Below, one piece after another: positions 1,126-53,065 of a stretch of DNA of 64,000 nucleotides (within the stretch, counting starts at the first letter, position 1; every line of letters starts with the position of its first letter). Origin of the DNA: Candidatus Multivoradales bacterium (GTDB lineage: Bacteria > Acidobacteriota > Thermoanaerobaculia > Multivoradales > J023); assembly GCA_965248925.1 (NCBI GenBank), contig CBDFLE010000004.1, positions 220,748-284,747 of the forward strand, in the 5' to 3' direction. The notes under the pieces were generated by a model that was not told where the DNA came from, did no database searches, and was given only the letters and a program-made list of their open reading frames with translations. Both the position numbers and the translations under genes were made by a program.

Positions 1126-1263
1126 CGCTTGCTCCGTGGGTCTAGGAGGATGGTAGGCGAAGGAAGGAGGGATTGAGCAGACATCCTGCTTTTCAAGCGC
1201 TCACTCCGCGCGGCCCGTCCCGTGATCGCCGGACTACCTTGCGGCTGGTTGATTCTGAGGCTT

Positions 1264-1316
1264 GAGGACTGTGAGTCCTCTTCATTGAGTAAGAGAGAGG
1301 ACTGAGAGTCCTCTCT
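1264..1316. promoter_or_regulatory. Tandem palindromic operator pair GAGGACT-N3-AGTCCTC between divergent genes
   Basis: Copies at 1264-1280 and 1297-1313 (second extends to 10-bp arms, 1294-1316), 33 bp apart; conserved at 51178-51227. Confidence 0.6.
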
Positions 1317-1408
1317 GTCCAAAAACTCCGTCGTTCTTGCTGTCGAGGCCGCGGAGAGCCGTTGGTTGCGATACTCTTTGGGCCTAATCAATATCTCTGG
1401 AGGGAGCA

Positions 1409-2752
1409 ATGTTTGGCGAATCAGCGAGCGAGCAGCACCAGCGATGCCTAGAAACGCTGAAGGCCCATGTGCGACGGCATCCGATGTCGGTAAGGGAGAT
1501 CGAGCGGCGCCTGGGATATTCTCCGTCCTACTTGCACCGGATCCTTCGTGGCAAAGTAGGGTTGTCGTTTGAGGGCTTGTTGCAGCTGCTCGAAGTGGTG
1601 GATATGAGCTTCGAGGAGCTGGCGATCAAGACGGCGCGAGTGGATGCCGAGGGATTGTTGGAGAGAGCCTTACCTCCGGGCACGGTAGATCCGCCAGAAA
1701 TTGAGCAGTTGTCGTTAGTAGCAACTCAGCTCATCGAAGGTGATCTTGTTAGAACAGCACCCGATTCAGCATGTCAGGCGCTATTTCAGGCGGTGAGTGA
1801 AGCTGATGAGCAGCGCTACTCGGACCCCTGGTTAGCCGCTGAAAAGGCGTGGTCAATCGCAGCTTGTGTAGCGCCTAGAATAGCCGGCAGATCGGCGCTG
1901 GAACTCTGCTGTGGAGCGATCAGTGTTTACGGGTCTTGCTGCCGAATCGGCGGAGCTGCTCAGCACGCGATTCGCGCGTTGATTTCTGTTAGCCAGCTCG
2001 TTCGATCGTGCGGGCTGAGCCATCGGGCGGATTGGCTTCTTCGGGCCGCCTCGGCATTGAATAGTCACGGTGAGCATGAAGCTGGGCTGGAACTCGGCAT
2101 TGTGGCTGGAGAGATCTTCGAGAGGTTGGGGGACAGTGCGGGTGTAGGCTCGGCTCTCATCAGCAAGGCTATCTCGATGGTCTTCTTGAAGGACAATGAG
2201 CGAGCGGCGACGACCTTCCACTCTGCGCTTCTTCATATTCCGTCGAAGGGCTATTCTCGTCGGCTGATGGCAGCTCATCATGGTCTGGCGAAGTTGCTGG
2301 TCGAGCAAGGGGATTTGGAGGAGGCTAGATCACATATTGTGTCTGCATCGTCAGAGGTCCAAGCGTCGGACACCTACAGTCGAGGCATGCTGGCCCGGAC
2401 CATGGGCAACTGGCATTGGAAGAAAGGACATAGGGAAGAGGCAATAGAGGATTTGCGCTCAGCGGAGAAGTGCCTTGTGGAGATCAATCCCTTCGATACG
2501 GCTTTTGTCGTACTCGACCAGATCGGGTTCTGCCTGGAAATTGGCCGACTCCAGGAAGCGATCAAGGCTGCCGAGGAAACGTCCGACCTGATCGAGCTGT
2601 TCAAGTCCAATCCGATGGCAGGTGGCATTCTTTTGAGGCTTCGAGACGCTGCCCAGAGGGGAAGGCTGAGCATGCGTCTGATTGAGATCGCCCGGAGAAG
2701 GATGGCCGGCAGGCGGCCTTTCGGAATCCGCCCGCCGGCAACATTTAATTAG
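1409..2752 (+). CDS. XRE-type HTH + TPR regulator (receptor A)
   Basis: N-terminal HTH (SVREIERRLGYSPSYLHRILRGK), TPR-like helical repeats (AHHGLAKLLVEQGDLEEA), GGAGGG RBS. Confidence 0.85.
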   Translation: MFGESASEQHQRCLETLKAHVRRHPMSVREIERRLGYSPSYLHRILRGKVGLSFEGLLQLLEVVDMSFEELAIKTARVDAEGLLERALPPGTVDPPEIEQLSLVATQLIEGDLVRTAPDSACQALFQAVSEADEQRYSDPWLAAEKAWSIAACVAPRIAGRSALELCCGAISVYGSCCRIGGAAQHAIRALISVSQLVRSCGLSHRADWLLRAASALNSHGEHEAGLELGIVAGEIFERLGDSAGVGSALISKAISMVFLKDNERAATTFHSALLHIPSKGYSRRLMAAHHGLAKLLVEQGDLEEARSHIVSASSEVQASDTYSRGMLARTMGNWHWKKGHREEAIEDLRSAEKCLVEINPFDTAFVVLDQIGFCLEIGRLQEAIKAAEETSDLIELFKSNPMAGGILLRLRDAAQRGRLSMRLIEIARRRMAGRRPFGIRPPATFN

Positions 2753-2808
2753 CCGCTGGGATCGATGGATCCACCGTATTGCGGCCCTACTGGCTTGGTT
2801 TCTAACAT
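2749..2808 (-). CDS. Small peptide MLETKPVGPQYGGSIDPSG (19 aa), putative ligand of receptor A
   Basis: Hand-translated; AAGGGAG RBS upstream of ATG; stop overlaps the receptor stop (TTAG); homologues in the same position after the other two receptors. Confidence 0.8.
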   Translation of the reverse strand: MLETKPVGPQYGGSIDPSG

Positions 2809-3079
2809 CTGATTTCTCCCTTGAAGTGCGAGCAAGCTGGGCCACTTAATTGCGCCCGCTGCCCGCTACAGGCCCAAGCTACAGCGCTTCCCAAACAGAT
2901 CCTTTGGTTGAATGCTCATCAGAGGGCGATGGAGGCCGTGAACACGGCTTGAGTGCGAGTAGATTCAAAGCGCTCGTAGACTGTTTAGGGCTAGTGAGTA
3001 GCTCCGTGCGAGGCCCGCCGAAGGGTGCTTCTCTTGCGTTTTGGGCAGCAGAACCTCTGTCATTCAGTGATCTGAGGGG

Positions 3080-3143
3080 AAACGGTTCATTTCGAGCTTG
3101 CACAAATGAACCGTTTGGTCTCAGCGGTGGACTTGCCTACAGT
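3080..3143 (+). promoter_or_regulatory. 13-bp perfect inverted repeat followed by a putative sigma70-like promoter of rhs
   Basis: AAACGGTTCATTT-N11-AAATGAACCGTTT (3080-3116); TTGGTC(3115)-N17-TACAGT(3138), 6 nt before ATG 3150; identical at 52996-53059. Confidence 0.55.
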
Positions 3144-3149
3144 CTTCCG

Positions 3150-6100
3150 ATGCCAAAACAGCTATCTCTGCGCTCTCTCCTCGTCCTCCAAGCCTCTCTC
3201 GGTGCCCTCCTACTGTCGGCGAGCGCCGCTCAAGCGGCGCCTGCCTTTATCTCGGTAACCCCCGCCGACGGCACTCTGTCGAGCGCCGCGACGGTGACTC
3301 TGACTATCGAAGTGCAGGCCGCGACCAGCTTGCAGGTGGATGGCCAAGCGGTCACCACGGTTGATCCCTCGGGGACGGTGTGGACCGCTGGTCCTTACTC
3401 GTTGAGCGAGGGGGAGCGGGTGTTGGTGTTGATTGCCGAGGACGCTTCCGGGGTGCAGGCTCAGCAGCTGCACCGGGTGGTGCGGGACTCGCTGGCGCCG
3501 GTGCTGAGCCTGAGCCAGCCGGCGGCGGCGGCGATTGTCGCCAGCTCGCCGCTCACCGTGGCCGGCACGGCGGTGGATGCGCATCTGGCGGCGGTGCGGG
3601 TGGGGGGTCAGGTGGCGGCTCTCAGTGGTGCGAGTTTTTCGCACTCGCTGGTCTTGGTGGAGGGCGAGCAGACGTTCACCGTGGAGGCGAGCGACAGCCT
3701 GGGGCAGAGCGGGCAGCAGAGTGTGACGGTGACTCTCGATAGCCAGCCGCCGACGGTGGCGCTGTTGGAGGGAGCTCAGCCGTTGGCGGCGGATGCGCTG
3801 TTCAATCGCTCGGTGGTGCTGAGCTTCAGCGTCACGGATGCGACGGCTACGACGGTCGAAGCGCTGCTCGACGGCGCTTCTTTTGTCTCTGGCACGACGG
3901 TGAGCGGGGCGGGTTCGCATGTGTTCTCAGTGACCGCCACCGACGCGGCTGGCCAGCCGACTAGCGTCAGCCGGAGCTTTGAGATCGACCTGACGGCGCC
4001 GACTTTTCTCAGCTTCACGCCGAGCGATGGCACGCTCTTGGCAGGCTCGCAGGTGACCCTCAGCGGGGTGGTAGAGGGTGCGGCCGCGCTGAGTGTCGAG
4101 GGACAGGCGGCGAGCCTGGTGGGGCAGTCGTGGACGGCCGGGGCATTGCAGCTGATCGAGGGGGAGCGGGAGATTTCTATCGTCGCTACTGATCTGGCGG
4201 GCAATAGCGCCTCGTTCACCTTGCATTTGGAGCGCGACGCGACGGCGCCGCAGCTGATCGGCCTGGTGCCCAGTGTGGACTCGGTTTTGGCGACCTCGCC
4301 GGTGGCGATCAGCGGCACCGCGAGTGACGCCCACTTGCTGGAGGTGCGGGTGGGGGGCGAGCTGGCGAGCCTGACGGGCTCGCAGTTCAGCCAGCCGGCG
4401 GTGGCGCTGGTGGAGGGTGAGAATCTCCTGCCGATCGTGGCCACGGATCAGGTGGGCCATCAGGCGACGGCCGAGCTGCGGCTGGTGCTCGATACCCAAG
4501 CACCGACGCTGTCGCTGCTGGTGGCGGGGGTGCCGCTGCAGGGTGGCGCGGTGTTCGCCGGCCCGGTGACGCCTGAGATCTCGGCCAGCGACGCCACCGA
4601 GGTGGTGACGTCGGCGACTCTCGACGGCGCCACCTACTTGCCGGGCACGGTGATTGATGGCGATGGCTTGCATCAGCTGTCAGTGAGCGCCAGCGACGCG
4701 GCGGGCCATCAGGCGACGGTGCTGGTGAGCTTCAGCCTCGACCTGGCGGCGCCGGTGTTCGCGGATCTGGCGCCGGTGGCTGGCAGTGTGGACAGCGCTG
4801 CTCAGGTGACGCTGACCGGCCGCGCGCCGGGGGCGGTGTCGGTGTCGGTGGACGGGCAAGCGGCGACGCTGGCGGGGGATGGCTTTAGCGCCGGTCCCTT
4901 CAATTTGAGCGAAGGGGAGCGGGTGTTCTTGCTCGCCGCCACCGATAGCGGCGGCAACGTCACCCAGCTGACCCACCGCCTGACCCGCGACTCGACGGCG
5001 CCGCAGCTCACCCTCGGCCAGCCGGCGGCCGGATCCCTGCTGGGGAGTACCACGGTCGATGTCAGCGGCACGGCGAGTGATCCGCGTCTTGATCAGGTGA
5101 CGGTCAATGGGGTGCTGGCCGAAATCAGTGGCGGCGCTTTCCTGGCCCGTCAGGTGGCGCTTATTGAAGGTGACAATGTGCTCACGGTGGTGGCGGCGGA
5201 CACGGTGGGCAACGAGGTCCAAACGACCCGCTCGGTGACCGTTGATACGACGCCGCCGACGGTCGTCATCACCGACCCGGCCAGCGGCACGATCACCCCC
5301 GAGGCGGGGCTGACCCTGTCGGGCAGCGCCGCGGATCCTCATCTCGACCGGGTCGAGGTGGCGGGGGTGGGGGCGAGCCTGGTGGGTGAGCAATGGTCGT
5401 TGGCGGTGGATCTGCAAGAGGGCAGTAACACTTTCACCGTCGAAGCCTTCGACCCGCTCGGCCACAGCACCAGCGCCAGCGTCACGGTGACTCGCGACAG
5501 CTCGGCGCCTGAGATCCACATCGAGAGCCCGGCCGAGGGGCTTTACAGCCCAGCAGCGAATCTCACGGTCAGCGGCACGGTGGTCGCGGAGCCCGATTTG
5601 ACAGTGACGGTGGGCGGCGTGGCGGCGACGATTGCGGGCAGCAGCTGGAGCGCCGCCGCGGTGCCGCTAGTAGAGGGTGAGAACCGGCTGATCGCAAGGG
5701 TGACCGACGCCCTGGGCAACCAAGGCACTCACACGCGGGTGGTGTGGCGCGACAACCAAGCGCCGGAGTTTCTATCGTCGATCCCCGCCGCGGGGGCTCT
5801 CGAGCTGCCGGCCGGCAGCAGCTTCCGGCTGCGCTTCAGCGAGCCGTTGGCGGCGCCCAGCGGGGGCGCCTACAGCCTCAGCACCTTGGCCGGGCAAGCC
5901 CTGGCGAGCAGCGCCGAGATCGATGGCGACGACTTGGTGATCACCCCGCAGGCAGCACTGCCGTCGGCCACCGAGCTGCGCCTGGTGCTAGGGGCGGGGC
6001 TGGTCGATCGGGCGGGCAATGCTCTAGCGGCGGCTCATACTCTGGCTTTCACCGTGGTCGATGGCGGCTCCCCGGCGGCGCCGCAGCTCGACGCCTACGC

Positions 6101-9100
6101 TAGCTATCTCTGTGCGCCGGCTATCACCCTTGCCGGCAGTGCCGAGCCTGGTGCTTGGATCGAGGTAGATGGCGGGGCCTCAGTAGGAGCGGGGCAGGTG
6201 GCAGACGATGGCCGTTTCGCCATCAGCGTCGTGCTGCTGCCCGAGGGGCCGAATCACCTGACGGTGATCGCCGTCGACGCCGCGGGCAACCCCTCGCCCG
6301 CGACGAGCGCCGATATCGTCCACGATTGCACCGCGCCGGAGGTGCTGGGTGCCAGCCGGGAGGCGGCGGGATTCCGCATCGCCCTCAGCGAGACGGTCGA
6401 TCCGCTGACCTTGAGCGGCTCGGTGCGGGTGTACGACAGTGGCGTGGAGATCGCCGGCACGGTGAGCGCCGCGGTCAATGCTGGCGCTGGCGAGCTGATC
6501 TGGACGGCCACTGCGGCACTGCCATCCGTCGCTCTGCTGGTCGAGGTCGAAGGAGCTTTGGCGGACCTGGCCGGCAACCCGTTGGCTTTCCCCTACCGGC
6601 AACTCTTCGATATAGCGCTGGGCGGTAGCTTCTTCTCTGGCACCGCTATCGACGACGCCTCCGGCCGGCCGCTGGGCGGGGTGCGGGCGGTGGTGACGGC
6701 CAGCGACGGGGTGGCCCTGGCCGAGCCCTGGCCGGAGCAGACCAGCGGCGAGGACGGTCGCCTGGTGATCGCTCTGCCCGCCGGCACTCACGACGTGACC
6801 TTTGCCCGGCCGGGCTACACGCCGGTGTTTCGGGTGGTGACGACGGTCGACGGCCAAGGCACGGACGTTTTCGACCCTCGCCTGACGCCGGCCGCGGCGG
6901 CGGTGTCGATAGATGCATCGGGCGGCTTGGTGGAGGGCTCTTCCGAGGTCGGCACGGCGCCGCGTCTCACTCTTCCGCTCGCCGGCCTGGCGTCGGCTGC
7001 GGCGGTGCGCCTGACGGCGGTGGGCGGCCAGGGGCTGGCCGCCTTGCTGCCCTACGGCTGGGCACCGCGGGGTGCCGTCTGGGTGGATCTCTCGGCCGTG
7101 AATCTGGATAGTTCCGCGACCCTCGATCTGCCGGTGACCTCGGCCGACGGGACGGTCCTGGAAGCGGTGACTCTCGATCTCGCCACCCTGCAATGGCGTT
7201 CGCTGGGGGTGGTGACGGTGAGCGGCGGCGAGGTCACGATGACCGTCGACGGCGAAGGAGCCTGGGCGGCGGTGGAAGCCGACTCGGGAGCTTTGGCGCC
7301 GCCCCCGGCGGTCGCTGGCCAGATGCTGGGCTCCTCGGCCGCGCCGCCGTCCGGCGGGGTGACTAGCGCCAGCCTGAGCTTCGATCCCGAGGTGGTCTTG
7401 CCGACGCAGCGCAGCTGGGTACAGGTGCTCTACGGGCTGGCGGCGGAGGTGCCGAGCGGGGTGCCGCTGACTTTGTCGATCGAGGAGCGGCTGGAGCTAC
7501 TCGATGGCAGCGTGCGGCGGATCAGTCCCTACAGCGCCGATCTGGTGCTCTACCGCGATTCGCTGGGCGATCCGACCTCGAGGTTCCGCCTGCGGCCTTC
7601 GGCCGCGGCGCGCAGCCTGCCGGTGCGGCTAGGTGCCGAGCAAGTCAGCGTGCGGTCCTACGGTGATGAGACGGTGCGCGGCAACGTGCTCGGCCCCGAC
7701 GGCGGGGTGGTGTCGAGTGCCGAGGGCGATCAGGTGGTGTTGCCGACGGGAGCCCTCGAGGAGCCCACGGCGGTGACCCTGAGTCGCCGGACAGTGGCAG
7801 ATCTGCCGCTGGCTCCACCCGCTGGTGGCACGGTCGATGGCGTCTTGGAGCTGGACCTTGCCGGCCGCCGGCTGTTGCTGCCGGCTGAGTTGTCGTGGTC
7901 GCTGACCCCGGCACCGGCTGCTGGCACGCCGGGTTTGTTGCTAGGGGTGGTGGAAGTGGAAGGCGAGCCGCGCTATCGGGCGATTGCCGAGCTGGAAGCC
8001 ACCGCCACGGGCTGGAGGACCCAGGCGATTGACGCTGCCGATCTGGCCTGGCCGGGGGTGCTGGAAGGTGGTTTGTACGTTTTCTTGCGCCTCGATGCGG
8101 CACCGCGCTTTGTGCGGGGCATGGTGCTTGACCCAGGAGGTGCTCCGGTCGTGGGCGCGGTGGTCGAGTCGACGACGGTGCCTTGGCTCCAGATCTCAGC
8201 CGCCGAGGGTGGCTACGTGCTGCCGATTCTGCTGGATGCCGCCACTCTCAGCGCGCGGCGCGCGGTCACCGGCAACGCGGTGGCGGTGGCGCTGCCGGCC
8301 GGGGTGGCGGGGGAGCGGGTCGATCTCGATTTGCCGCTACAGATCGTGGCGCCGTGGGTCGAGCAGATCACTCCGTCAGCGGGCACCAGCGGAGTGTTGC
8401 TCGGGGTCAATCCAGTGGTGCGTTTCAGCGAGCCGGTGGATCGGGCCTCGCTCGATGGCGCTATCGAGCTGCGCCAGGGGGGCGTGGCGGTGGCGGTGGC
8501 ACTCGATCACCAGGGCGCCCTGGTCACCCTGCTACCGCAGGCGACGCTGGTGCCTGGCAGTGAGTACGAGGTCTGGGTGGGGGCGGCGGTGCGTGACTTG
8601 CAGGGCTATGGGCTGAGCGGCTCGGTGAGCGTGCTGTTTAGCACCGAGGTGGTGGCGACGCCGGCCGGGGTCGATCGCGGGCGGATCTTCCTGGTCGAGC
8701 CCGATGCCCAGGGGCTGGCGCGAGTGGAGGGCCTGGCGGGGGCGGCGCCGGCCGGCACGCTGGTCTTCGTTGAAAATCTGACGTCGTTCTCGACCACCGA
8801 GTCTGTACAGAGCGCGGGTGACGGTAGCTTCCTGCTGACGATCGGCGCCAGCCTCGAGGATCAGCTGCTGCTGCATGTGCTGATCGATGGGGGTAACGAG
8901 GTAGTGATCCTGCTGACTCCGTTCCTGGGCGCCGACCTGCGCACCGGCCTGGCGGGGACGGGGGCGGGGGAGTTTACGACCGCCGATGGAATCACCGTGC
9001 GTTACGCGGCTGGCACCTTCGCCGGGCCGTCCAGGGTGCAGGTGACGCCGATCGCCATGGGCACGCTCGCGGCGGCAGAAGACTTCAGCGAGCTGCTGAC

Positions 9101-12100
9101 CTTCCGGCTGGAGATCGCCGGCGCGCAGCCACTGAAGCCGCTGGAAGTGACGATGGCGGCGCCGGCTGGCACCGCACCAGCTGGCACCGCAGCGGGCAGC
9201 CTCTGGCTGCTGCGCCGGCAGCTCGAGATTGCCGATTTACCGTGGATGGTCCACGCCGAGCTGGCTCTCGATGGCGGTGAGCTGAGCACGATCCACACCG
9301 TGGGCGAAGCCCAATCCGCCAACTCCGGCGAGGTGGGTGGCACCAAGTCAGGCACGTTTGACGTGCCGGCCCCTCTGCGGGTACTGAGCCCGGCAGAAGC
9401 CGCCGCGCGGCTGCCGCGCTCGGGCTTCTTGAGCGCTCTGCCGCCTGCTGACCCAGCGGCTCTGGTCGAGGTCGAGCCGCCCCTGGCCGGCTTGGGAGCG
9501 GCCAAGGCGACCGTTGCCCCCGTCCTGGCGGACTACCTGGTCGGCGTCTCCCGCCCCGGCATCTACCAGGCAGCGAGGGCCGAGGTCGAGCTGGGTTGGA
9601 TCGCCTTCCCCTTCCGTGGCGCCCAAGATCTGGTGGTGCGCACCGCCGAGTTACCCGAGGTGGTGCTGGCGCTCGATGCCGTCAACCGCTCCTTCCTGCC
9701 GCTAGGCGCCGGTGCCTTGCCGGTTGAACTCAGCCCGACGCCATTGAACGCCGATCCCGCCGCGCCGGGGACGCCGGGGACGCCGGGGTCGAAGGCGCCG
9801 CCAGCGGGCGAGCCCAAGGCCGACTCGGTGGAGATCCAGGTGCTCGATTTCGCCGGTGTCGAGCTTTATCGGGTGGTGGTTGACGCCCCGACCCAGCAGG
9901 TGGTGCTGCTGAGCCCCAGCCAGCTACCCAACGCCGGGCCGCCCATGCCGCTGGGCGGTGGGCCGCTGCGCTTCCATGCTTTTAGCGCCGCTCCAGGCAC
10001 TAGCGAGATCGCCGCCGGCATCAGCGCCGAGCTGGAGGGTAACTCGCTCACCGTGCGCGGCGAGGCGGGCAGCGCCGGAGCCGGAGTGGCGGTGCGTCTG
10101 ATCGATCTAGAAAGCTCGAACGTGCTCAGCGCCACGGCGTCTCCAGGCGGTAGCTTCAGCGTCGTCGCCAGTCCGTCGCAGCTCGGCGATCAGCTGGTGC
10201 TGGCGATCTCGGCCAAGCTCACTCCGGGCCAGCCGCTGCGCCTCGACTTCTCAGAAGCCTTGCAAGAAGAGGCGCCAGGAATCCGGGTCGAGCACGACGG
10301 GATGGCCCTGCCCATCACCAAAGAGCCTCTGGGCAGCTGGGCACAGCTGCTGATCCACGGCGGCTGGCAGGCAGGCAAGACCTACAACTTGCGCCTGGAC
10401 TCCACCATGGCCGACGCCGCCGGCTTGCCTTGGGATACTGACCTGACTCTGCCTTTCGAAGTCGCCGAATCGAGCGCCGGCACTAGCTTCGCGCTCGACG
10501 CGGCGCACGACATCGCGCGCCTCGGCTCGTTGCTCTTCGTGGCGGCCGGAGCCGATGGCCTGGCGGTGCTCGACGCCAGCGACCCGCGCCAGCTGAAGAA
10601 CTGGCTGGCGGCTGAGACCTACGTTGATCTGGTCGCGGAGCCAGGTCTACCGGTGCGCGGGGTGGCGACCGACAGCCATGGCCGGGTGGTGGCAGTAGGG
10701 GGTGGCGTCGCCCGCCGGGGGGTGCTGCTGATCCTCGATCCGCAAGAGCTGCCCCAGGGTGCCGCGACGGTGCCCGCGGCGGCGATTCTCGGCCGCACCC
10801 TCCTCACCGAGCCCCAGCTGGCTGGCTCGGGTGCCCCGCCGCTGCTCATCGGGCGGCCGCTGGCGGTCGAGATCTTCAACCGCGATGAGAGCACGAGCTG
10901 GACGGTGGGGGAGGTGGTGCCGCCGGGCCTCACCCTGGCTCCGCCCAGCCCACCGAGCGGCACGGCGGCTGTCTCGCTCACCGTCAGTGGCATGGCGACG
11001 GCGGAGCGTCCGGTGACTCTGCGCAACCTCACCACCGGCGAGCGCGACAGCGCTCGCGTCGGCAGTGCTGGTGGCGGCGGTGCTGGCAGTTTCTCCCTGA
11101 GTCTCAGCGTGCGGCGCGGCGACCGCCTGGAGCTACTGCGCAACGAGCTGTCCTTGGCCTACGTGGCGGGTTACGACGCCGGGGTGGTGACGGTGGATCT
11201 GAACGCCGTCGAAGCGGCCGATGAGGAAGTCGACGATCCTTGGGATGCCTTCGATCTGCTGCGCTACAACACTCACTATTTTGTACCGACCGAGGTGCTG
11301 TGCTCGACGTTTGAGAACGATCAGCGCTTCGACGTGATCGACGCGCGGGTGCTGCCGGCGGCGTCGGAGGGCGAGCCTTGGAGCGTGCTGGCCCTGGTCG
11401 AGAATTATGGCTTGCTGTCGCTGGGTGCCTCGGTCGCTGCGCCGCTGGACAAGCTGGCCTACCGCGACGCTCTCTGCGGCGAGGTCGACGGCAACCGCAA
11501 GCTGGGGGGTCTCGATGTGCTGCCCGGCTACCGCTTCGACCGCAACGGCGACGGTGTGCTGGACGACGAGGAGCCCGAGCGTGACTACGCGCTGCTCACC
11601 AACACCGTCGGTGGCGGCGGTCTTGGCTGGCTGCTGATCGTCGATGTCACCAAGCGCGATGAGCTGCTTCTTGTGGGCCGCATCGAGCTGCCCGGCCCAG
11701 CGACGCGGGTGACTGCTGACCCGGTCGGCCGCCGCGCCCTGGTCTCAGGCCTCGGTGGCGGGGTCTACATCGTCGACCTCGACCGCTGGCCCGAGCTGGG
11801 TGGCGGCGGCGGAACCCCTCAGATCTGGTCGAGCGATCGGGTGGTCGAGCGCTTGAGCTTTGGCGAGGACGTGCGCGCCCCCACCCTGGTGGCTCCAGAA
11901 CTGGGCCTGGCCTTCGCCGGTGGCGTTGCCCGCGGCGTGACCCCCATCAGCACCGGCCTGCCGCGCCTGTCGCTGGTGACCAGCGGCCAGCAGGGACTGC
12001 GTCGGGTCGCCCGGCTGGCGCCATTTGGCGCGCCTACCGCGCCGGAGAGTGCCGAGGAGGGAGCGGAAGAAATACCCGGCGTGATCCGCGTGCAGGCGCA

Positions 12101-15100
12101 GCTTCCTGGTGGCCTGGCCGATGCCGAGGGCAAGATCCGTGTCGACCTCGCGGGCATCGGCCCCGCCGGTTTGCCGGTGCGCGGCCTCGGCGAGGGGCTG
12201 ATGGACGAGCCCATGGCCGAGCTGAAAGACGATAAGGCGCTGGTGCTACAACGGCAGTCGGACAACCCCCTGTCAGAGGGCTACAACGTCTTCCTCTCCG
12301 ACCCGGTGGTGCTGCTGGCTGACGTGCGCGCCTCGGCGCATTTCGAGCGCTCGGAGGCTGAGAAGAAGGTCTGCCGCCGCTGCGACCTGGTGGACGAGGG
12401 GGTCTACTCCGCGGCCGATCTACCTCCCAACGAGCTGCATGTCGAGCTGCTGTCGGGTCACCAGGTCCGCGCCAGCTACAGCGCCAGCTTCGCCACCAGC
12501 CTCAGCGGGCTTTACAACGCCGATCTGCTAGCGGGCTACGCCGTCATCGCCGACAGTGTGCCCTGGGATCTCAGCCCCTCGCCGCACCAGGAGCCGGTGC
12601 TCAATGCCGCCACTAGCGCGATGGCGGCGCCGGGCACCCTCCTGCACTCAGGAGAGATGACCCGCCAGGCGATCGACTTAAGCCTCCAAGGCCGGGGATT
12701 GGACCTCGCCTTGGTGCGCACCTACCGCAGCCAGACAATCAGCAACGGCCCCCTCGGCCCGGGCTGGGATCATGGCTACCGCCTGCGCCTGCGGCTCTTG
12801 CCCAATGGCGATATCGACTTCTTCGACGGCACTGGCCGCCGCGAGACCTTCACCTTGGAAGACGACGGCAAGCTTATGCCGCCCGTCGGCCGCTTCGTCC
12901 AGCTCAAGAAGTACGCCGAGGGCTACACCCTGATCGGCAGCGGCTACCAGCGCTGGCGTTTCGACCGCTGGGGTCGTTTAGTGTCGATGATCGACTCGGT
13001 GCGCACCAGCGAAGGGACCGGCAACGAGATCACCTTCCACTACGACTCCCACTCGCGCCTGGCGCGAATCCACGACGACCTCGACCGCAACACCTTCCTG
13101 CACTACGACGACGAAGGCCGCCTGGAGAAGATCGTCGACTTCAGTGATCGCGACTTCCTCTACCACTACGACGCCCAGGGAAGATTGACCAGTTTCGAGA
13201 CCCCAGACGTCGACCTCGGCAGCGGCAGCAGCCAGCGCCTGTCGACCACCTACGCCTACCATCCCCTTGGCACGGGCCTGGCCGGGCAGCTCACCCAGCG
13301 CGATGATCTGAAAAGCGAGACCGACGCCAAGAGCCAGACCTGGCTCACCCTGCGGTATCAGGACTCCGACGGCAACGGCCGCCCCGATGCGCTCAAAGAA
13401 CAAGACTGGGGAGCGGGGACAGTGCATTTGGCCTTCGATTTCGACGGCCAGCAGACCACCCTGACCGATCGCCGAGGCAAAGTCTGGACCTACCATCTCA
13501 ACGCTGCTGGGCAGGCCACCAGCCTGATCGATCCGAAGTCAGCCAACGGGTCGTGGCAATACGACGGCGAGGGTCTGCTGACCCGCGCCACCCGCCCCTT
13601 GGGTGGGGCTACCCAGATCGAGTATCCGGCGGACACCTCCGGCGACCGCCGCGGCAGAGGCGATGCCCAGCGGATGGTTAAGATCGCCGATGGCCGCGGC
13701 CCCAACGGCTCGCCCAGCGAGCTGGTGACCACCTGGGAATACCACTCACCGACCCACCAGCCCAGCCGAAAAACCGAGCCCGGTGGCGCGGTGACGGTGT
13801 GGGAACGGACGGATAATGGCCTGCCCGAGCAGATCGTGCGGGCCGCTGGCGCGGCGGAGCAGAGCATCACTGGGTTGAGCTACAACGCCCGCGGCCAGCT
13901 GCTGGAAGCCACCAATCCCAACGGCCACGTCACCCGCCACAGCTATTTCACCTCTGGCTCAGAAGAAGGCTACTTGAAGCAAACTGAAGTCGACCCTGGC
14001 GGTCTCAGCCTGGTCACCATTTACGAGCGCAACGATCGCGGCCAGCTGGAGGCGATCACCGATCCGCGAGGCGTGCGCCATGAGACCGAGCTGAACAGGC
14101 TGGATTGGCCGCTGGCCCAGGTAGCCGCCGCCAGCACCAGCGGTTTTCTGGCACCCCTCGGCTACCGCACGACCTGGCGCTACGACGCCAACGGCGACAT
14201 CACCGAAGTGGCCAGCCCCTTCGGCGACGGCTCGACGACGACGATCGAGGTCCGCACCTTCGGCGTGCTCGGCGAGCTGCTGTCGGCCGAGAGAGAGGTG
14301 GCTCCAGGAGGTCGGCGTATTGTAGAGACCTCGACCTATGACCCAAACCTGAACCTCTTGACTCACATCGACGGCGCCGGCCAGCGGGTCGAGCGTGAGT
14401 ACGACGACCGAGGCCAGTTGTCTCTGGTGCGCCGCGGCTTGGGTACCGGCGCATTGGCGACACCGATTGTCGAGCACCAGAGCTACGACCTGGACGGCCA
14501 TTTGAGCAGTCAGCGCGATGGCCGCGGCATGACCTGGGAGGCCGAGCGCGATGGCCATGGCCGGGTGCTGCGCAGCCGCACTCCGCTCGGCCACTACCGA
14601 GAGCAGAGTTACGGCGCGGCCGGCGATCTGGCGGCCACGCTGGCCTTTGACGCCGGTGGCCAGCTGCTGGCCGAGAGTGCTTTCACCCACGATCTGCTAC
14701 ACCGCCGCACCGAGACCACCGCCTGGCGCTGGACTCCCGATCCACAGCAGCCCGACCCCGCTCGGACTGCTGAGAAAACTCACCATCGGTGGGATGTCGC
14801 CAGCAACCTACTCGAAGTCGAAGATCCGCTGGGTCGCCTGACCCGGACCTTCTACGACGCTGCCGAGCGCCCCGAGCGAGTGGAGCTGCCCGAGGGCAAC
14901 GTGCGCCGCACGACCTACGATTCTGGTGGCTTGCCGATTACCGAGCATGCCGACGAGGTCGATCCGGCGGGCGGCTCGCACACCATCACCTATCAATCGA
15001 CTTTCGATGCCCTCGGCCGCCGCCTCAGCCGCCAAGACGGAATCTTCGCCAACCGCACCCTCTGGACGGTGGATGCTCGCGGCCAAGTGACCCTCGAAGT

Positions 15101-18100
15101 CGACCCGACCGGTAGTTTCACCCAGCGCAGCTACGATGGGCTCAACCGGATGACCCGCGAGATCCGTCCGGAAGGGATCTCGGTCGACTACAGTTGGGAC
15201 GACGCCTCGCGCCTCAGCACCTACACCGACGCCCGCGGTCAGGCCACCCGCTGGACCTACGACGCCGTGGGCCGGCGCACCAAAGTGGTCTACCCTGATC
15301 AGCAGCAGGAACGCTGGGTCTATGACCCCACCGGCAACGTTACCGAGCGCCACGATCCTCGCGGCTTGGTCGTGCATCAGAGCTGGGATGACGCTGGGCG
15401 GTTGCAATCACGTACTGTCACCCCGCCGCTGGGCGGCACCCTCGAAGGGCCGGGGGTCGAGGCTTTCACCTTCGACGGCCTCGACCGCCTGACCCGAGCC
15501 CAGTCGGGAAGCGTAGTTACCGAGCGAGTCTACAACTCCCTCTCCCACCTGGCCTCAGAGACGAATGCCGGACGCACCACCAGCTGGCAGCGCAACGCCC
15601 TTGGCGAGCCCACTCGCACTAGCTACCCCTCGGGCCGCCAGGTCGAGCGCGCCTTCGACAATCTCGGCCGAGCCAGCACGGTTGGCGAACCCGGCGCGCC
15701 AGCCTCGATTGCCAGCTACGGCTATCGCGGCCCGGCGATTGCCTACAAGGCTCTCGGCAATGGTCTCCTGGGCAACATAAGCTTCGATGGCTTGCGCCGG
15801 ATGGTGGACAGCAACTTCAGCCTGGCGGGGGAGTCCGCCACCTTCCAGGAGAGTCTGGCCTGGAGTCCCCGCAGCCTCAAGACCGGCCAATCGCGGGGCG
15901 ATCTGGGCGGCGCCGGCCGGGTCTTCGCCTACGATGGCGCGAAGCGCCTGATCGAATCCGCTCGCGTGCCCCCGGCTTTGGCTCAGCGCCCTGGCAACAC
16001 GCCCCCCGACGTGGCCCTGCTGGCCAGCTTGCCCGAACGCACAAGCTACCAGCACGACAACGCCATGAACCTGATTCGCAGCACCACCACCCAGCGTGGC
16101 ATCGAGCAGATCACCGATTTACCGCCGGACAATCGCAATCGTCCCAGCGCTGTCGGCGGCGTTGCCCTCGAATGGGACGCTGCCGGCAACATGAAGCGCA
16201 AGGGCGATATGCAGATGTACTATGATTTCAAGAGCCGACTGACGCGGGTCGCCCGCGCCGGTGTCGAAGTCGCCAAGTATCACTACGACGCCTTCAACCG
16301 CCGGGTGAAGGTCGAGACGCCGACCCACACTGAGGACAGCGTCTGGGACGGCTGGCAATCGTTAGAAACCTATCGCGATGGTGCCTTGGCCTCGCGGCGG
16401 GTCTACGGCAACGGTATCGACGAGATCCTGCAACAAGAGGCCGACCTCGATGGAGATGGCACGGTGGAGCAGACTTACTATCCGATCACCGACAGCACCG
16501 GCAACGTGGCGATGCTGACCGGAGCTGACGGCAAGCCCATCGAGCGCTACTTCTACACCCCGTTTGGCGGGCGCAAAGTGCTGGTCGACTCCACGCCCCC
16601 CGAGGTCGAACAGGTGCGGGTGCAAGACGGTGCACTGTGGATCGAGCTTTCTGAAGAAGTCTCCACCGAAGAACTACAAGCCAGCCTGGCCGACGGTCGC
16701 ATCCAGCTGACCCAGACCAGCGACGGAATGCCCCTGCCGCTGACTCTTGATCTGCCCGTCCAGGAAGGCCGTCAAGCTCGGCGAAGACTCGTGCTGACGC
16801 CGGCCACGCCGCCCACCGACGGCGACAGCCTGCGGCTAGAAGTCGCCGCCAGCGCGCTGAGCGACACCTTCCGCAACCTGGCCAATGCCGGCGTCGACCT
16901 CACCTGGACCTGGTCCGCGGCCCAAGAGGTGCTGCAAGACACCGCCGCGCCGCGGGTCGCCGAAGTCCTGTTGCGATCACGCATCGTCGAGATCCAGTTC
17001 AGCGAAGAAGCCGACCTCGCCGCGGCTGCCAGCGCGATCCTCTTAGACGGTCAGCCCACTAGCTGGACCCTGGCTGAAGACCGATACACCCTGGTCGCAA
17101 GCAATACTCTGGCAGCAGGCACTCACACCCTCGACATTGGTACAGACGCTCTCGACCTCGCCGGCAGCGGCCTGGCCGCTGCCTTCAGTCAAGCCCTCAA
17201 CGTGCCGGCCAGCGGCGACCAGCTGGCCTTCCAGGCCGCCGACCCGCGACTCAGCAGCACCAGTGCCGCCGGCAACGCTCATGGCTTCCATGGCCGGCCG
17301 GTGGATGAGGAAACCGGGCTGCTGTACTTTAGGAACCGTTATGTCGATCCGGAGATGGGGCGGTTTGTTAGCAGCGACCCGATGGGGTATGTGGATGGGC
17401 CTAGTGGGTATCAGTTTGCGGGGAGTTCGCCCGAGGGTTTTAGAGATCCGCTGGGGTTAGCTCTCGTGTTCGGAGGAGACAAGTCATTAGAACTAGCCGT
17501 CGGTCGTCTACGTATTCGTAGTCCACAAATCGATGCCACATTGGCGAAATACGAAGGGCCTGGGGAACCGGATCTGATCTTCCAGAGACAAGGAACGCTG
17601 GCTGCGGATCGCGACGGCGGCAAAGTATTGCAGCATTTCAAGCCGTCCTTCAATCAAAGCGAGTTTTTGCCGATAAACTTCGAAGCAATGGAAGAGGAGA
17701 CCCGCACATGGTTTGCTGATCACGCGAAGGCCAAGTCGGCTAGCGGGCCTAGATGGAAAGGAAATCCAACACTGGAAATTCCGCCAATTTTCTATAACGA
17801 CAGTACTGGCAATGGGAACTGCGATAGTGGGCGGTATATTGACCCGATGTCTGTTCGATTGGAAAGGGCGTATATAGTAGTGAGCGTTAAGGAAAACAGG
17901 GCCGGTAGTGTTGAAGAAGCGTTCAGCTTGATACACGAACTAGGCCATGCTGATCAAGCGGCAAACAATACATGGGACTTTTTATCGAAGACATGCAATG
18001 ATCAAATTTATAGGGAGTTCAGTCTTGAAACCGAATCGTGGATTGGCGTGATCCCTCACGATGAACGCAGCGTGGAAAAGTACGCAGACCAATATCGCAG

Positions 18101-18194
18101 GTCTGTAGGCATTGAACTTGGTGTGGTACCAACAGATTTGAGGAGCAAGAAAGCGTGGCTCAAGAGATTGAAAGAGATTGGATTTCGGAGATGA
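3150..18194 (+). CDS. Giant Rhs/YD-repeat toxin A (~5014 aa): signal peptide, many Ig-like repeats, propeller-like region, DUF6531-like domain, YD shell, Rhs core, HExxH C-terminal tip
   Basis: MPKQLSLRSLLVLQASLGALLLSASAAQA signal peptide; GEN..V.A.D.AGN and FSEP.D Ig repeats; GPLGPGWDHGY; YD repeats; GLLYFRNRYVDPEMGRFVSSDPMG...DPLG; tip from 17457 has lower GC and IHELGH. Confidence 0.92.
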   Translation: MPKQLSLRSLLVLQASLGALLLSASAAQAAPAFISVTPADGTLSSAATVTLTIEVQAATSLQVDGQAVTTVDPSGTVWTAGPYSLSEGERVLVLIAEDASGVQAQQLHRVVRDSLAPVLSLSQPAAAAIVASSPLTVAGTAVDAHLAAVRVGGQVAALSGASFSHSLVLVEGEQTFTVEASDSLGQSGQQSVTVTLDSQPPTVALLEGAQPLAADALFNRSVVLSFSVTDATATTVEALLDGASFVSGTTVSGAGSHVFSVTATDAAGQPTSVSRSFEIDLTAPTFLSFTPSDGTLLAGSQVTLSGVVEGAAALSVEGQAASLVGQSWTAGALQLIEGEREISIVATDLAGNSASFTLHLERDATAPQLIGLVPSVDSVLATSPVAISGTASDAHLLEVRVGGELASLTGSQFSQPAVALVEGENLLPIVATDQVGHQATAELRLVLDTQAPTLSLLVAGVPLQGGAVFAGPVTPEISASDATEVVTSATLDGATYLPGTVIDGDGLHQLSVSASDAAGHQATVLVSFSLDLAAPVFADLAPVAGSVDSAAQVTLTGRAPGAVSVSVDGQAATLAGDGFSAGPFNLSEGERVFLLAATDSGGNVTQLTHRLTRDSTAPQLTLGQPAAGSLLGSTTVDVSGTASDPRLDQVTVNGVLAEISGGAFLARQVALIEGDNVLTVVAADTVGNEVQTTRSVTVDTTPPTVVITDPASGTITPEAGLTLSGSAADPHLDRVEVAGVGASLVGEQWSLAVDLQEGSNTFTVEAFDPLGHSTSASVTVTRDSSAPEIHIESPAEGLYSPAANLTVSGTVVAEPDLTVTVGGVAATIAGSSWSAAAVPLVEGENRLIARVTDALGNQGTHTRVVWRDNQAPEFLSSIPAAGALELPAGSSFRLRFSEPLAAPSGGAYSLSTLAGQALASSAEIDGDDLVITPQAALPSATELRLVLGAGLVDRAGNALAAAHTLAFTVVDGGSPAAPQLDAYASYLCAPAITLAGSAEPGAWIEVDGGASVGAGQVADDGRFAISVVLLPEGPNHLTVIAVDAAGNPSPATSADIVHDCTAPEVLGASREAAGFRIALSETVDPLTLSGSVRVYDSGVEIAGTVSAAVNAGAGELIWTATAALPSVALLVEVEGALADLAGNPLAFPYRQLFDIALGGSFFSGTAIDDASGRPLGGVRAVVTASDGVALAEPWPEQTSGEDGRLVIALPAGTHDVTFARPGYTPVFRVVTTVDGQGTDVFDPRLTPAAAAVSIDASGGLVEGSSEVGTAPRLTLPLAGLASAAAVRLTAVGGQGLAALLPYGWAPRGAVWVDLSAVNLDSSATLDLPVTSADGTVLEAVTLDLATLQWRSLGVVTVSGGEVTMTVDGEGAWAAVEADSGALAPPPAVAGQMLGSSAAPPSGGVTSASLSFDPEVVLPTQRSWVQVLYGLAAEVPSGVPLTLSIEERLELLDGSVRRISPYSADLVLYRDSLGDPTSRFRLRPSAAARSLPVRLGAEQVSVRSYGDETVRGNVLGPDGGVVSSAEGDQVVLPTGALEEPTAVTLSRRTVADLPLAPPAGGTVDGVLELDLAGRRLLLPAELSWSLTPAPAAGTPGLLLGVVEVEGEPRYRAIAELEATATGWRTQAIDAADLAWPGVLEGGLYVFLRLDAAPRFVRGMVLDPGGAPVVGAVVESTTVPWLQISAAEGGYVLPILLDAATLSARRAVTGNAVAVALPAGVAGERVDLDLPLQIVAPWVEQITPSAGTSGVLLGVNPVVRFSEPVDRASLDGAIELRQGGVAVAVALDHQGALVTLLPQATLVPGSEYEVWVGAAVRDLQGYGLSGSVSVLFSTEVVATPAGVDRGRIFLVEPDAQGLARVEGLAGAAPAGTLVFVENLTSFSTTESVQSAGDGSFLLTIGASLEDQLLLHVLIDGGNEVVILLTPFLGADLRTGLAGTGAGEFTTADGITVRYAAGTFAGPSRVQVTPIAMGTLAAAEDFSELLTFRLEIAGAQPLKPLEVTMAAPAGTAPAGTAAGSLWLLRRQLEIADLPWMVHAELALDGGELSTIHTVGEAQSANSGEVGGTKSGTFDVPAPLRVLSPAEAAARLPRSGFLSALPPADPAALVEVEPPLAGLGAAKATVAPVLADYLVGVSRPGIYQAARAEVELGWIAFPFRGAQDLVVRTAELPEVVLALDAVNRSFLPLGAGALPVELSPTPLNADPAAPGTPGTPGSKAPPAGEPKADSVEIQVLDFAGVELYRVVVDAPTQQVVLLSPSQLPNAGPPMPLGGGPLRFHAFSAAPGTSEIAAGISAELEGNSLTVRGEAGSAGAGVAVRLIDLESSNVLSATASPGGSFSVVASPSQLGDQLVLAISAKLTPGQPLRLDFSEALQEEAPGIRVEHDGMALPITKEPLGSWAQLLIHGGWQAGKTYNLRLDSTMADAAGLPWDTDLTLPFEVAESSAGTSFALDAAHDIARLGSLLFVAAGADGLAVLDASDPRQLKNWLAAETYVDLVAEPGLPVRGVATDSHGRVVAVGGGVARRGVLLILDPQELPQGAATVPAAAILGRTLLTEPQLAGSGAPPLLIGRPLAVEIFNRDESTSWTVGEVVPPGLTLAPPSPPSGTAAVSLTVSGMATAERPVTLRNLTTGERDSARVGSAGGGGAGSFSLSLSVRRGDRLELLRNELSLAYVAGYDAGVVTVDLNAVEAADEEVDDPWDAFDLLRYNTHYFVPTEVLCSTFENDQRFDVIDARVLPAASEGEPWSVLALVENYGLLSLGASVAAPLDKLAYRDALCGEVDGNRKLGGLDVLPGYRFDRNGDGVLDDEEPERDYALLTNTVGGGGLGWLLIVDVTKRDELLLVGRIELPGPATRVTADPVGRRALVSGLGGGVYIVDLDRWPELGGGGGTPQIWSSDRVVERLSFGEDVRAPTLVAPELGLAFAGGVARGVTPISTGLPRLSLVTSGQQGLRRVARLAPFGAPTAPESAEEGAEEIPGVIRVQAQLPGGLADAEGKIRVDLAGIGPAGLPVRGLGEGLMDEPMAELKDDKALVLQRQSDNPLSEGYNVFLSDPVVLLADVRASAHFERSEAEKKVCRRCDLVDEGVYSAADLPPNELHVELLSGHQVRASYSASFATSLSGLYNADLLAGYAVIADSVPWDLSPSPHQEPVLNAATSAMAAPGTLLHSGEMTRQAIDLSLQGRGLDLALVRTYRSQTISNGPLGPGWDHGYRLRLRLLPNGDIDFFDGTGRRETFTLEDDGKLMPPVGRFVQLKKYAEGYTLIGSGYQRWRFDRWGRLVSMIDSVRTSEGTGNEITFHYDSHSRLARIHDDLDRNTFLHYDDEGRLEKIVDFSDRDFLYHYDAQGRLTSFETPDVDLGSGSSQRLSTTYAYHPLGTGLAGQLTQRDDLKSETDAKSQTWLTLRYQDSDGNGRPDALKEQDWGAGTVHLAFDFDGQQTTLTDRRGKVWTYHLNAAGQATSLIDPKSANGSWQYDGEGLLTRATRPLGGATQIEYPADTSGDRRGRGDAQRMVKIADGRGPNGSPSELVTTWEYHSPTHQPSRKTEPGGAVTVWERTDNGLPEQIVRAAGAAEQSITGLSYNARGQLLEATNPNGHVTRHSYFTSGSEEGYLKQTEVDPGGLSLVTIYERNDRGQLEAITDPRGVRHETELNRLDWPLAQVAAASTSGFLAPLGYRTTWRYDANGDITEVASPFGDGSTTTIEVRTFGVLGELLSAEREVAPGGRRIVETSTYDPNLNLLTHIDGAGQRVEREYDDRGQLSLVRRGLGTGALATPIVEHQSYDLDGHLSSQRDGRGMTWEAERDGHGRVLRSRTPLGHYREQSYGAAGDLAATLAFDAGGQLLAESAFTHDLLHRRTETTAWRWTPDPQQPDPARTAEKTHHRWDVASNLLEVEDPLGRLTRTFYDAAERPERVELPEGNVRRTTYDSGGLPITEHADEVDPAGGSHTITYQSTFDALGRRLSRQDGIFANRTLWTVDARGQVTLEVDPTGSFTQRSYDGLNRMTREIRPEGISVDYSWDDASRLSTYTDARGQATRWTYDAVGRRTKVVYPDQQQERWVYDPTGNVTERHDPRGLVVHQSWDDAGRLQSRTVTPPLGGTLEGPGVEAFTFDGLDRLTRAQSGSVVTERVYNSLSHLASETNAGRTTSWQRNALGEPTRTSYPSGRQVERAFDNLGRASTVGEPGAPASIASYGYRGPAIAYKALGNGLLGNISFDGLRRMVDSNFSLAGESATFQESLAWSPRSLKTGQSRGDLGGAGRVFAYDGAKRLIESARVPPALAQRPGNTPPDVALLASLPERTSYQHDNAMNLIRSTTTQRGIEQITDLPPDNRNRPSAVGGVALEWDAAGNMKRKGDMQMYYDFKSRLTRVARAGVEVAKYHYDAFNRRVKVETPTHTEDSVWDGWQSLETYRDGALASRRVYGNGIDEILQQEADLDGDGTVEQTYYPITDSTGNVAMLTGADGKPIERYFYTPFGGRKVLVDSTPPEVEQVRVQDGALWIELSEEVSTEELQASLADGRIQLTQTSDGMPLPLTLDLPVQEGRQARRRLVLTPATPPTDGDSLRLEVAASALSDTFRNLANAGVDLTWTWSAAQEVLQDTAAPRVAEVLLRSRIVEIQFSEEADLAAAASAILLDGQPTSWTLAEDRYTLVASNTLAAGTHTLDIGTDALDLAGSGLAAAFSQALNVPASGDQLAFQAADPRLSSTSAAGNAHGFHGRPVDEETGLLYFRNRYVDPEMGRFVSSDPMGYVDGPSGYQFAGSSPEGFRDPLGLALVFGGDKSLELAVGRLRIRSPQIDATLAKYEGPGEPDLIFQRQGTLAADRDGGKVLQHFKPSFNQSEFLPINFEAMEEETRTWFADHAKAKSASGPRWKGNPTLEIPPIFYNDSTGNGNCDSGRYIDPMSVRLERAYIVVSVKENRAGSVEEAFSLIHELGHADQAANNTWDFLSKTCNDQIYREFSLETESWIGVIPHDERSVEKYADQYRRSVGIELGVVPTDLRSKKAWLKRLKEIGFRR

Positions 18195-19952: not shown

Positions 19953-20002
19953 TCCTTGAGAATACAGATCTAACGCAGCCTAGCCAGAGGTGCCGCGCTT
20001 CC

Positions 20003-23900: not shown

Positions 23901-23959
23901 CCCTCCGGAGAAATCAGCATCCCGTAGCTCATTTGGTTTTCACGAGATTTAGTTTTCAT
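23897..23959 (-). CDS. Small peptide MKTKSRENQMSYGMLISPEG (20 aa), putative ligand of receptor B
   Basis: Hand-translated; AAGGAGG RBS 6 nt before ATG; stop overlaps the receptor stop (CTAG). Confidence 0.8.
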   Translation of the reverse strand: MKTKSRENQMSYGMLISPEG

Positions 23960-24036
23960 CAGTGACCTCCTTCGCAACGAGCCAAGAGTCGCTGAATTGC
24001 TCTTCTTGGTCCGAAGTCCCGCCCAAACTATATCGA

Positions 24037-52669: not shown

Positions 52670-52725
52670 CCGTTTGGCTCGATGAACCCACCATAGTGCG
52701 ATTCGGCTGGTTTGGACTTGAGCAT
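52666..52725 (-). CDS. Small peptide MLKSKPAESHYGGFIEPNG (19 aa), putative ligand of receptor C
   Basis: Hand-translated; GAGGGAG RBS; stop overlaps the receptor stop (CTAG). Confidence 0.8.
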   Translation of the reverse strand: MLKSKPAESHYGGFIEPNG

Positions 52726-53059: not shown

Positions 53060-53065
53060 CTTCCG

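Follow-up and report, generated by a model that had tools for sequence, protein, structure and literature searches.

Related peptide systems and the modules of the window

Peptide signaling through cytoplasmic regulators that combine a helix-turn-helix (HTH) domain with tetratricopeptide repeats (TPRs) is described as a hallmark of Bacillota and of their phages and plasmids (PMC10075063, PMC12700828, PMC11343458). The RRNPP_detector survey, as reported in PMC10075063, covered Firmicutes and viruses only, and a full-text literature search, with supplementary tables lying outside its reach, returned no paper linking RRNPP or RRNPPA systems with Acidobacteria. Several variations of these systems are known: propeptides with several pheromones in tandem occur in RRNPPA systems (PMC9765709; PMC11343458), the leaderless peptides SHP and PrgQ are exported by PptAB (PMC10075063), and the Alo systems of Paenibacillus comprise more than 25 peptide-receptor pairs per genome (PMC7425212). 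Here we analyze a 64,000-nt stretch of contig CBDFLE010000004.1 of Candidatus Multivoradales bacterium (assembly GCA_965248925.1, positions 220,748-284,747 of the forward strand); this whole stretch is further referred to as the window. It carries three modules, in each of which the gene of an HTH-TPR protein, further called the receptor, is paired with a convergent gene for a very short peptide. We propose that these modules probably belong to a new, RRNPP-like family of cognate peptide-receptor regulatory pairs.

The first module consists of receptor 1 (1409-2752, plus strand) and peptide gene 1 (2749-2808, minus strand). Receptor 1 is a 447-aa protein with an XRE-type HTH domain at approximately residues 16-72 and, behind it, an all-helical solenoid of TPRs (approximately residues 119-433), and its Pfam matches are HTH_31 (30.3 bits, with a cut-off of 27), TPR_12, TPR_2, and TPR_MalT. 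The AlphaFold2 model built from an alignment of 13 paralogues (mean pLDDT 88.7, pTM 0.87) has 24 helices, arranged as a small helical HTH head and a solenoid of about 17 helices spanning residues 119-433. The product of peptide gene 1 has 19 aa and ends with YGGSIDPSG; the gene overlaps its convergent receptor by 4 nt (2749-2752), and its ATG is preceded, at a spacing of 6-7 nt, by the Shine-Dalgarno (SD)-like sequence AGGGAG at approximately 2816-2821.

The two other modules repeat this arrangement. Receptor 2 (22560-23900, plus strand; 446 aa from the first ATG, in an open reading frame (ORF) that opens at TTG 22521) is 37-40% identical to receptor 1, and receptor 3 (51323-52669, plus strand; 448 aa) is 82% identical to it. 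Peptide gene 2 (23897-23959, minus strand; SD GGAGG) encodes 20 aa ending with YGMLISPEG, peptide gene 3 (52666-52725, minus strand; SD GGGAG) encodes 19 aa ending with YGGFIEPNG, and each overlaps its own convergent receptor gene by 4 nt. All three peptides are leaderless and hydrophilic, having neither a signal peptide nor a hydrophobic segment. The first-pass annotation of this DNA had proposed a peptide gene for each of the three receptor paralogues; the 19-aa ORF at 2749-2808 translates exactly as quoted there, and the two other quoted ORFs were found at the positions given above. The core of its consensus YGxxIxPxG also holds, whereas the first residue is broader and is better written as [F/Y/W/H]-G-x-x-I-x-P-x-G.

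Bernard et al. 2023 (PMC10075063) characterize RRNPP systems by five criteria: (i) a propeptide of 10-100 aa, (ii) a receptor of 250-500 aa, (iii) TPRs in the receptor, (iv) direct neighborhood of the two genes, and (v) secretion of the peptide by Sec, or by PptAB for SHP and PrgQ. The peptides are 19-20 aa long in the window and 11-38 aa long in the host genome. The window receptors fall in the expected size range, and some of their paralogues reach 500-536 aa. The TPRs are recognized both by the Pfam matches and by the modeled helical solenoid, and the genes are direct neighbors, with the 4-nt overlap in the window and with pairing in 27 of 28 family members of the genome. The pairs of relatives described below display all five features as worded in PMC10075063.

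Comparison with individual systems revealed likeness on several sides. With Rap-Phr, NprR-NprX, PlcR-PapR, and AimR-AimP, the modules share an adjacent small propeptide gene and a cytoplasmic TPR receptor of 250-500 aa; the N-terminal HTH domain is arranged as in PlcR, NprR, and AimR, and the propeptides of the relatives resemble the Sec-type RRNPP ones in having a signal peptide, a pro-region, and a C-terminal mature part. In contrast to the Sec-type RRNPP systems, the host is a diderm, Gram-negative bacterium of soil type from Acidobacteriota, the peptides would need to cross an outer membrane, and the peptide family is new, with its own xGPxIEPxG core and without a Sec leader in the window. 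In Rgg-SHP, ComR-XIP, and PrgX-PrgQ, as here, unannotated leaderless peptides of about 20 aa are encoded beside an HTH-TPR regulator. Their active part is C-terminal and the regulator typically controls the neighboring operon, as would hold here too, and some shp genes are convergent with rgg and overlap it. However, the SHPs have a basic N-terminus and are hydrophobic, unlike the hydrophilic peptides of the window genome; the Rgg model did not match the receptor, and no PptAB-type exporter was identified here.

The Alo systems of Paenibacillus offer a parallel for the massive expansion of paralogous pairs within one genome, but they belong to another phylum, and many of the copies described here lie beside Rhs toxin genes. 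The best named matches of the receptor are generic TPR regulators (TPR_MalT, 33.6 bits; NsdA_fam, 23 bits; AfsR, 1e-14), all below the curated cut-offs. The TPR parts concerned, namely MalT domain III, the NsdA family, and the C-terminal part of AfsR, go with other effector domains or ligands and have no cognate adjacent peptide gene.

Pairing of peptide and receptor genes in the host genome and among relatives

The host genome (8.0 Mb, 62% GC, 6 contigs) contains many further members of the receptor family: tblastn with the receptor yielded 39 matches, and a hidden Markov model (HMM) of 13 paralogues matched 73 six-frame reading frames. To quantify the pairing, we took the members with an intact C-terminus and E<1e-30 (n=28) and used 4256 other frames of at least 300 aa as controls. 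A convergent ORF ending with the loose motif [ILVMFY]xPxG (plus 0-3 aa), with its stop codon within -45..+60 nt of the receptor stop, was found at 27 of the 28 family members and at 50 of the 4256 controls. Stricter motifs sharpened the difference, to 26/28 versus 17/4256 for the strict motif and to 20/28 versus 0/4256 for the version that requires the aromatic residue; the paralogues are not independent and include three near-identical duplicates, although their receptor identities still reach down to about 25%. Conversely, only 28 of 270,333 frames genome-wide end with [FYWH][GA]xx[ILVM]xPxG before the stop, and 22 of these 28 abut a family member. We consider it very likely that these short ORFs are genuine genes with a functional link to the receptors. 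The three pairs of the first-pass annotation understated the scale, which amounts to some 30 pairs in this genome and a family spread across the order. One full-length member (E 2e-55), the receptor frame of G000 C5 that ends at 1762372 on the minus strand, had no detected convergent core ORF and is possibly an orphan receptor.

The genome encodes 23 distinct peptides of 11-38 aa, with start codons behind an SD-like motif. The logo of 26 cores has F, Y, H, or W at position -8 in 22 cores, G at -7 in 20, I at -4 in 21, and G, N, or S at -1 in 20. The conserved core occupies the extreme C-terminus in 26 of the 28 pairs, and several of the peptides have a tandem of two or three cores. With a mean hydropathy of -0.73, the N-terminal parts are hydrophilic, and the peptides have no counterpart among the Pfam and NCBIfam families. 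In most loci of the genome, the two genes of a pair adjoin or overlap each other, at spacings of -20..+7 nt.

Divergence along the module was compared among four close paralogues of contig C4. Their upstream 300 nt are 93-97% identical, and the HTH region (residues 1-110) has diverged little (dS 0.03-0.13). The TPR part shows dS of 0.44-0.95 and dN/dS of 0.18-0.35, the most variable receptor stretch being residues 241-360, and the peptide ORF shows dS of 0.5-1.3 and dN/dS of 0.2-0.8. The motif is thus kept at the amino acid level while the DNA has diverged, as had been noticed from the three window copies. A conserved HTH domain combined with co-diverged TPR and peptide parts is the pattern that we would expect of orthogonal ligand-receptor specificities.

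Outside this genome, 41 genomes from the family and order of the host were searched with the HMM, and 40 of them contain receptor homologues; genomes of family f1 have 8-34 each. A word-based homologue search with the receptor returned only its own three paralogues, and a profile search returned 244 representatives at E<=1e-30. The nearest ESM-Atlas clusters contain HTH_3/HTH_31+TPR_12 proteins, most commonly from Acidobacteriota, and one peptide from the same family has the same sequence as an NCBI 'hypothetical protein [Acidobacteriota bacterium]'; the peptides, where annotated at all, are called hypothetical. Both observations agree with the assignment of the host to Acidobacteriota, which bears out the earlier suspicion of a host outside Bacillota.

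The sample of relatives comprised 89 receptor 3' ends, namely 29 loci from the HMM search of these genomes and 60 further stretches. A convergent, SD-preceded ORF with the core within its last 25 residues was present at 57 of these ends, among them 26 of the 29 loci from genus g5, 6/7 from g7, 9/18 from g10, and 3/5 from g2. Most of the encoded peptides are 15-123 aa long, and a few reach 151 aa. By a crude regular expression used in place of SignalP, 22 of the 57 carry a Sec-type signal peptide. The leader is a property of certain genera: it is present in all core peptides of g10 (9/9), g7 (6/6), and g2 (3/3), in part of those of g6 and g9, and in none of the 26 of g5. The window genome and its sister genus g5 therefore represent the leaderless form.

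The secreted form is a protein of 60-150 aa that comprises an n-h-c signal peptide ending with AxA, then an amphipathic helix rich in Trp, a linker that is acidic or rich in proline, and, at the C-terminus, between one and seven xGPxIEPxG cores in tandem. Examples of tandem cores are five copies of GLGIGPLIEPNG (L075), seven cores (L064), five repeats of 15 aa (L046), four to five copies of YMIMMEPSG (L114), and five copies of ATPSADPNG (L110). In other families of the order, the gene of a propeptide with a signal peptide and the cores IDPNG, IDPLG, MDPNG, or VDPNG precedes the receptor gene in the same orientation at 6 of 7 loci; thus, the linkage of the pair has survived a change of gene order and orientation. 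At two orthologous loci whose receptors are 84% identical, the propeptide ORF stays open through several in-frame indels, and both loci conserve the signal peptide, the helix, and a C-VDPNG-xPxPC core. Cysteine pairs flank the cores in these other families, as C-VDPNG-xPxP-C or C-x-MDPNG-x-x-C (L167 2167-2499, L168 2166-2483, L060 682-1014), which hints at disulfide-cyclized mature peptides.

Outside the order, receptors of the full-length type were found in a few genomes of the same class, and elsewhere in the phylum only partial TPR matches were observed. Small ORFs with a signal peptide lie beside some of the class-level receptors (L147 2776-2958; L160 2677-2892 and 2924-3139; L165 1281-1457). 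Their products have an amphipathic helix of basic character and a C-terminus rich in Pro, without an xIxPxG core; one of the ORFs converges on its receptor gene and abuts it, and at one locus two such ORFs stand in tandem. These ORFs may represent a sister peptide family, which we note as a lead only.

Proposed mechanism and alternative explanations

We favor the explanation that each module is a cognate peptide-receptor pair working like an RRNPP system and belonging to a new family. The small gene would encode a peptide or propeptide, and its C-terminal core [F/Y/W/H]-G-x-x-I-x-P-x-G is probably bound as a ligand by the TPR solenoid of the regulator next to it. Ligand binding would switch the regulator at the neighboring intergenic promoters, that is, at the promoter of the peptide gene itself and, in this genome, at that of the divergent Rhs toxin operon. 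In most genera, the product would be a Sec-exported pre-pro-peptide, often with tandem cores, cut outside the cytoplasm and sensed after re-uptake as a signal of cell density or kinship; two OppA-type SBP_bac_5 genes are present in the genome, which is weak evidence, as the family is common. In the genus of the window, the signal peptide and the pro-region would have been lost, and the 19-aa product would leave the cell by a non-Sec route or act inside its producer. The many paralogues would then form orthogonal channels. Extracellular signaling stands at about even chances for the lineages with signal peptides and is doubtful for the leaderless lineage of the window. Co-folding of the TPR part of paralogue L011 (residues 150-527, supplied as an alignment) with its own 35-aa peptide, run without control pairs, gave scores of 0.03 and 0.05, to which we attach no weight for or against binding.

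A number of observations weigh against this explanation. No convergent core ORF was found at the remaining 32 of the 89 receptor ends of relatives. No ORF with an xIxPxG core was found beside seven class-level receptors. The signal peptides of the relatives were called by the crude rule mentioned above. Secretion by Sec, or by PptAB as for SHP and PrgQ, is not a feature that the window peptides display, and no known export route applies to them; the quorum-sensing interpretation is weakest here, and the earlier caution that their export is unproven was right for such leaderless, hydrophilic peptides. The receptor is no closer to Rap, Rgg, NprR, PlcR, PrgX, or AimR than to unrelated TPR proteins: the top Foldseek matches are the TPR domains of LGN, OGT, and APC, ranked above NprR and Rap (rank 25-40, E about 1e-3), all with E of 1e-4 to 1e-3; a profile search of PDB sequences placed NprR (1.9e-8) amid dozens of unrelated TPR proteins; and no NCBIfam RRNPP model came near its cut-off for the receptor. 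The RRNPP systems are also described in the literature as specific to Bacillota and their mobile elements, and the present host is a member of Acidobacteriota. Since the likeness is generic to TPR and HTH domains, we file the modules as an RRNPP-like new family and not as a demonstrable RRNPP member. The linkage of the two genes seen in the first-pass annotation is real, and the analogy drawn there is strongly supported by the Sec-type pre-pro-peptides of most related genera, often with tandem cores.

The proposed target is likewise open to objection. The association with Rhs genes is confined to this genome and was built partly by duplication of whole modules, and the neighbors of the pairs in relatives are unrelated, including phosphofructokinase (PFK), PGI, a P-type ATPase, a VWA protein, and a sigma-54 activator, which makes the Rhs link specific to this lineage. 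From gene position, we consider control of the adjacent Rhs genes by the pair a tentative assignment, somewhat short of an even chance. No evidence was found for a role in module mobility, which had been suggested as an alternative target of the switch.

For the leaderless clade, a sub-variant of the favored explanation makes the peptide a purely intracellular partner of the HTH-TPR protein, either a co-factor or an anti-regulator, giving each Rhs cassette a cell-autonomous bistable switch with no cell-to-cell signaling. It accords with the lack of a signal peptide in all 23 peptides of the genome and all 26 of the sister genus g5, with their hydrophilic N-terminal parts, with the tight abutment or overlap of the genes in most loci, and with the hairpin common to the two genes. 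However, the homologous peptides of most other genera have a clear design for Sec export, which argues that the ancestral mode was extracellular, and SHP and PrgQ are exported via PptAB despite being leaderless (PMC10075063). We regard a purely intracellular partner as unlikely. The small genes could be read in another way, as encoding secreted bioactive or structural peptides (antimicrobial, adhesive, or similar to ribosomally synthesized and post-translationally modified peptides, RiPPs), with the HTH-TPR protein acting as their local transcription factor, which would respond to some other ligand and not bind the peptide. Tandem multi-core precursors with a signal peptide and a pro-region are also typical of multi-core RiPPs and other secreted peptides, and the Cys pairs around some cores (L167, L168, L060) fit such products. 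But a RiPP cluster sets its precursor beside modifying enzymes, a protease, or an exporter, whereas the window neighbors are Rhs genes and insertion sequence (IS) elements, and no modifying enzyme, protease or peptidase, or exporter or transporter recurs among 10 neighbors from nine loci of relatives. A set of some 30 divergent copies in one genome, each accompanied by a regulator of its own, and the co-divergence of the TPR part and the peptide beside a conserved HTH domain are hard to explain for cargo, and the location of the core at the extreme C-terminus in nearly all pairs of the genome is that of RRNPP propeptides. Taken together, a cargo role appears improbable.

The small ORFs might also be untranslated and mark a conserved element of the DNA or RNA (for example, a terminator, an antisense RNA, or a promoter) at the receptor 3' end. 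The junction does contain a conserved hairpin, and short ORFs abound in GC-rich DNA; the ORF, however, is located outside the hairpin, an SD sequence and a start codon precede nearly all copies, and the amino acid motif is maintained at peptide dS values that leave the DNA clearly diverged (dN/dS 0.2-0.8). Further arguments are the homologues of 60-150 aa, which have signal peptides, preserve their frame through indels, and in other families take another position and orientation, and the enrichment of 20/28 over 0/4256. Together, these points leave an untranslated element hardly credible.

What is new under the favored peptide-receptor explanation is a family in a phylum where such systems have not been described; the RRNPP logic itself, multi-pheromone propeptides, and many pairs per genome are known. 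Acidobacteriota form an abundant phylum of soil bacteria that have an outer membrane and are poorly understood, and a conserved, expanded family there would widen the known range of HTH-TPR peptide signaling logic and suggest a regulation route for Rhs toxin arsenals. It flags dozens of unannotated genes per genome, and the 9-mer cores provide a concrete, synthesizable ligand hypothesis. The family would also supply the remote outgroup that a structural-phylogeny paper, in its own account, calls missing. A more far-reaching possibility, which we hold as speculative, is that this order of Acidobacteriota has true peptide communication by cytoplasmic receptors, either independent of RRNPP or anciently related to it, with dozens of orthogonal pherotype channels, Sec-exported multi-core signals, capture of the channels by polymorphic Rhs toxin cassettes in the lineage of the window, and leaderless 19-mers as a secondary shift to a new export route or to self-sensing. 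If so, it would be the first cytoplasmic-receptor system of this kind in a diderm phylum, and each Rhs toxin would be fired only upon sensing its own peptide code, amounting to kin- or density-gated contact warfare.

Junction hairpins, intergenic regions, and the Rhs context

A GC-rich hairpin (2705-2738) lies inside the last approximately 15 codons of receptor 1, just past the stop codon of peptide gene 1, and equivalent hairpins are found within the 3' ends of receptors 2 and 3 (23856-23892 and 52619-52650). Paralogue 2 has a fold z-score of -4.5, the values of the other two being weak (-0.6/-0.75 at 2705-2738); the stems vary between paralogues in a compensatory manner. The hairpin is probably a bidirectional terminator serving both convergent genes. 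The receptor tail R..GIRPP was considered as a pseudo-ligand that mimics the peptide; this was rejected as the main explanation, since the tail owes its conservation to codons that form the junction hairpin and is not conserved in relatives.

The intergenic region 2809-3149 separates peptide gene 1 from the divergent Rhs gene and was aligned across five modules. It is presumed to hold both promoters and the operator of the regulator; no sigma-70 consensus promoter was found within 1200-3300. A long interrupted palindrome at 3074-3124 (and at 52990-53040), with the core AAACGGTTCATTT / AAATGAACCGTTT, lies 26 nt before the start codon of the Rhs gene and has an RNA fold z-score of -2.6. It is conserved in five Rhs modules, one of which has a receptor just 33% identical to receptor 1, and thus it cannot be assigned to receptor specificity; the palindrome could be an operator or a hairpin of the 5' untranslated region.

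Each peptide gene of the window is followed downstream of its receptor module by a divergently oriented Rhs gene. The giant Rhs gene of the first module (3150-18194, plus strand) encodes a secreted protein with a signal peptide, Ig-like/Glucodextran_B domains, DUF6531, and RHS repeats by Pfam, and is the candidate target of the switch; its start codon is position 3150 itself, and not a later position as the first-pass annotation had implied. The copy downstream of module 2 (23997-29360, plus strand) is N-terminally truncated and matches the C-terminal part of the giant Rhs, a sequence in common with the ORF at 52925-63034. The copy downstream of module 3 (53066-63034, plus strand) has the same leader region and palindrome as the first. 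Genome-wide, a Rhs gene of one of three families lies within 9 kb in 16 of 32 loci and is divergent from the peptide gene in 14, the family calls being Pfam-confirmed for three representatives and made by shared N-termini for the remainder. Because whole modules were duplicated, these 16 loci represent few independent events.

Two IS-type transposase genes are located between Rhs module 1 and module 2, at 19039-20181 and 21300-22457, both on the minus strand; their domains are the rve/rve_3 integrase core, and DUF4372 with DDE_Tnp_1. Module 2 is fused to its N-terminally truncated Rhs copy. The end of the giant Rhs gene is overlapped by a 207-aa ORF without a Pfam match (18155-18778, plus strand), whose position suggests a cognate immunity protein. 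Receptor-peptide pairs are also present on the small contigs C1 (29.5 kb; receptor ends at C1:9793 and C1:28533) and C3 (48.9 kb; receptor end at C3:3841). These contigs carry a ParA-like and a DnaB-like gene, as judged by N-terminal sequence, and may be plasmids or phage-like elements.

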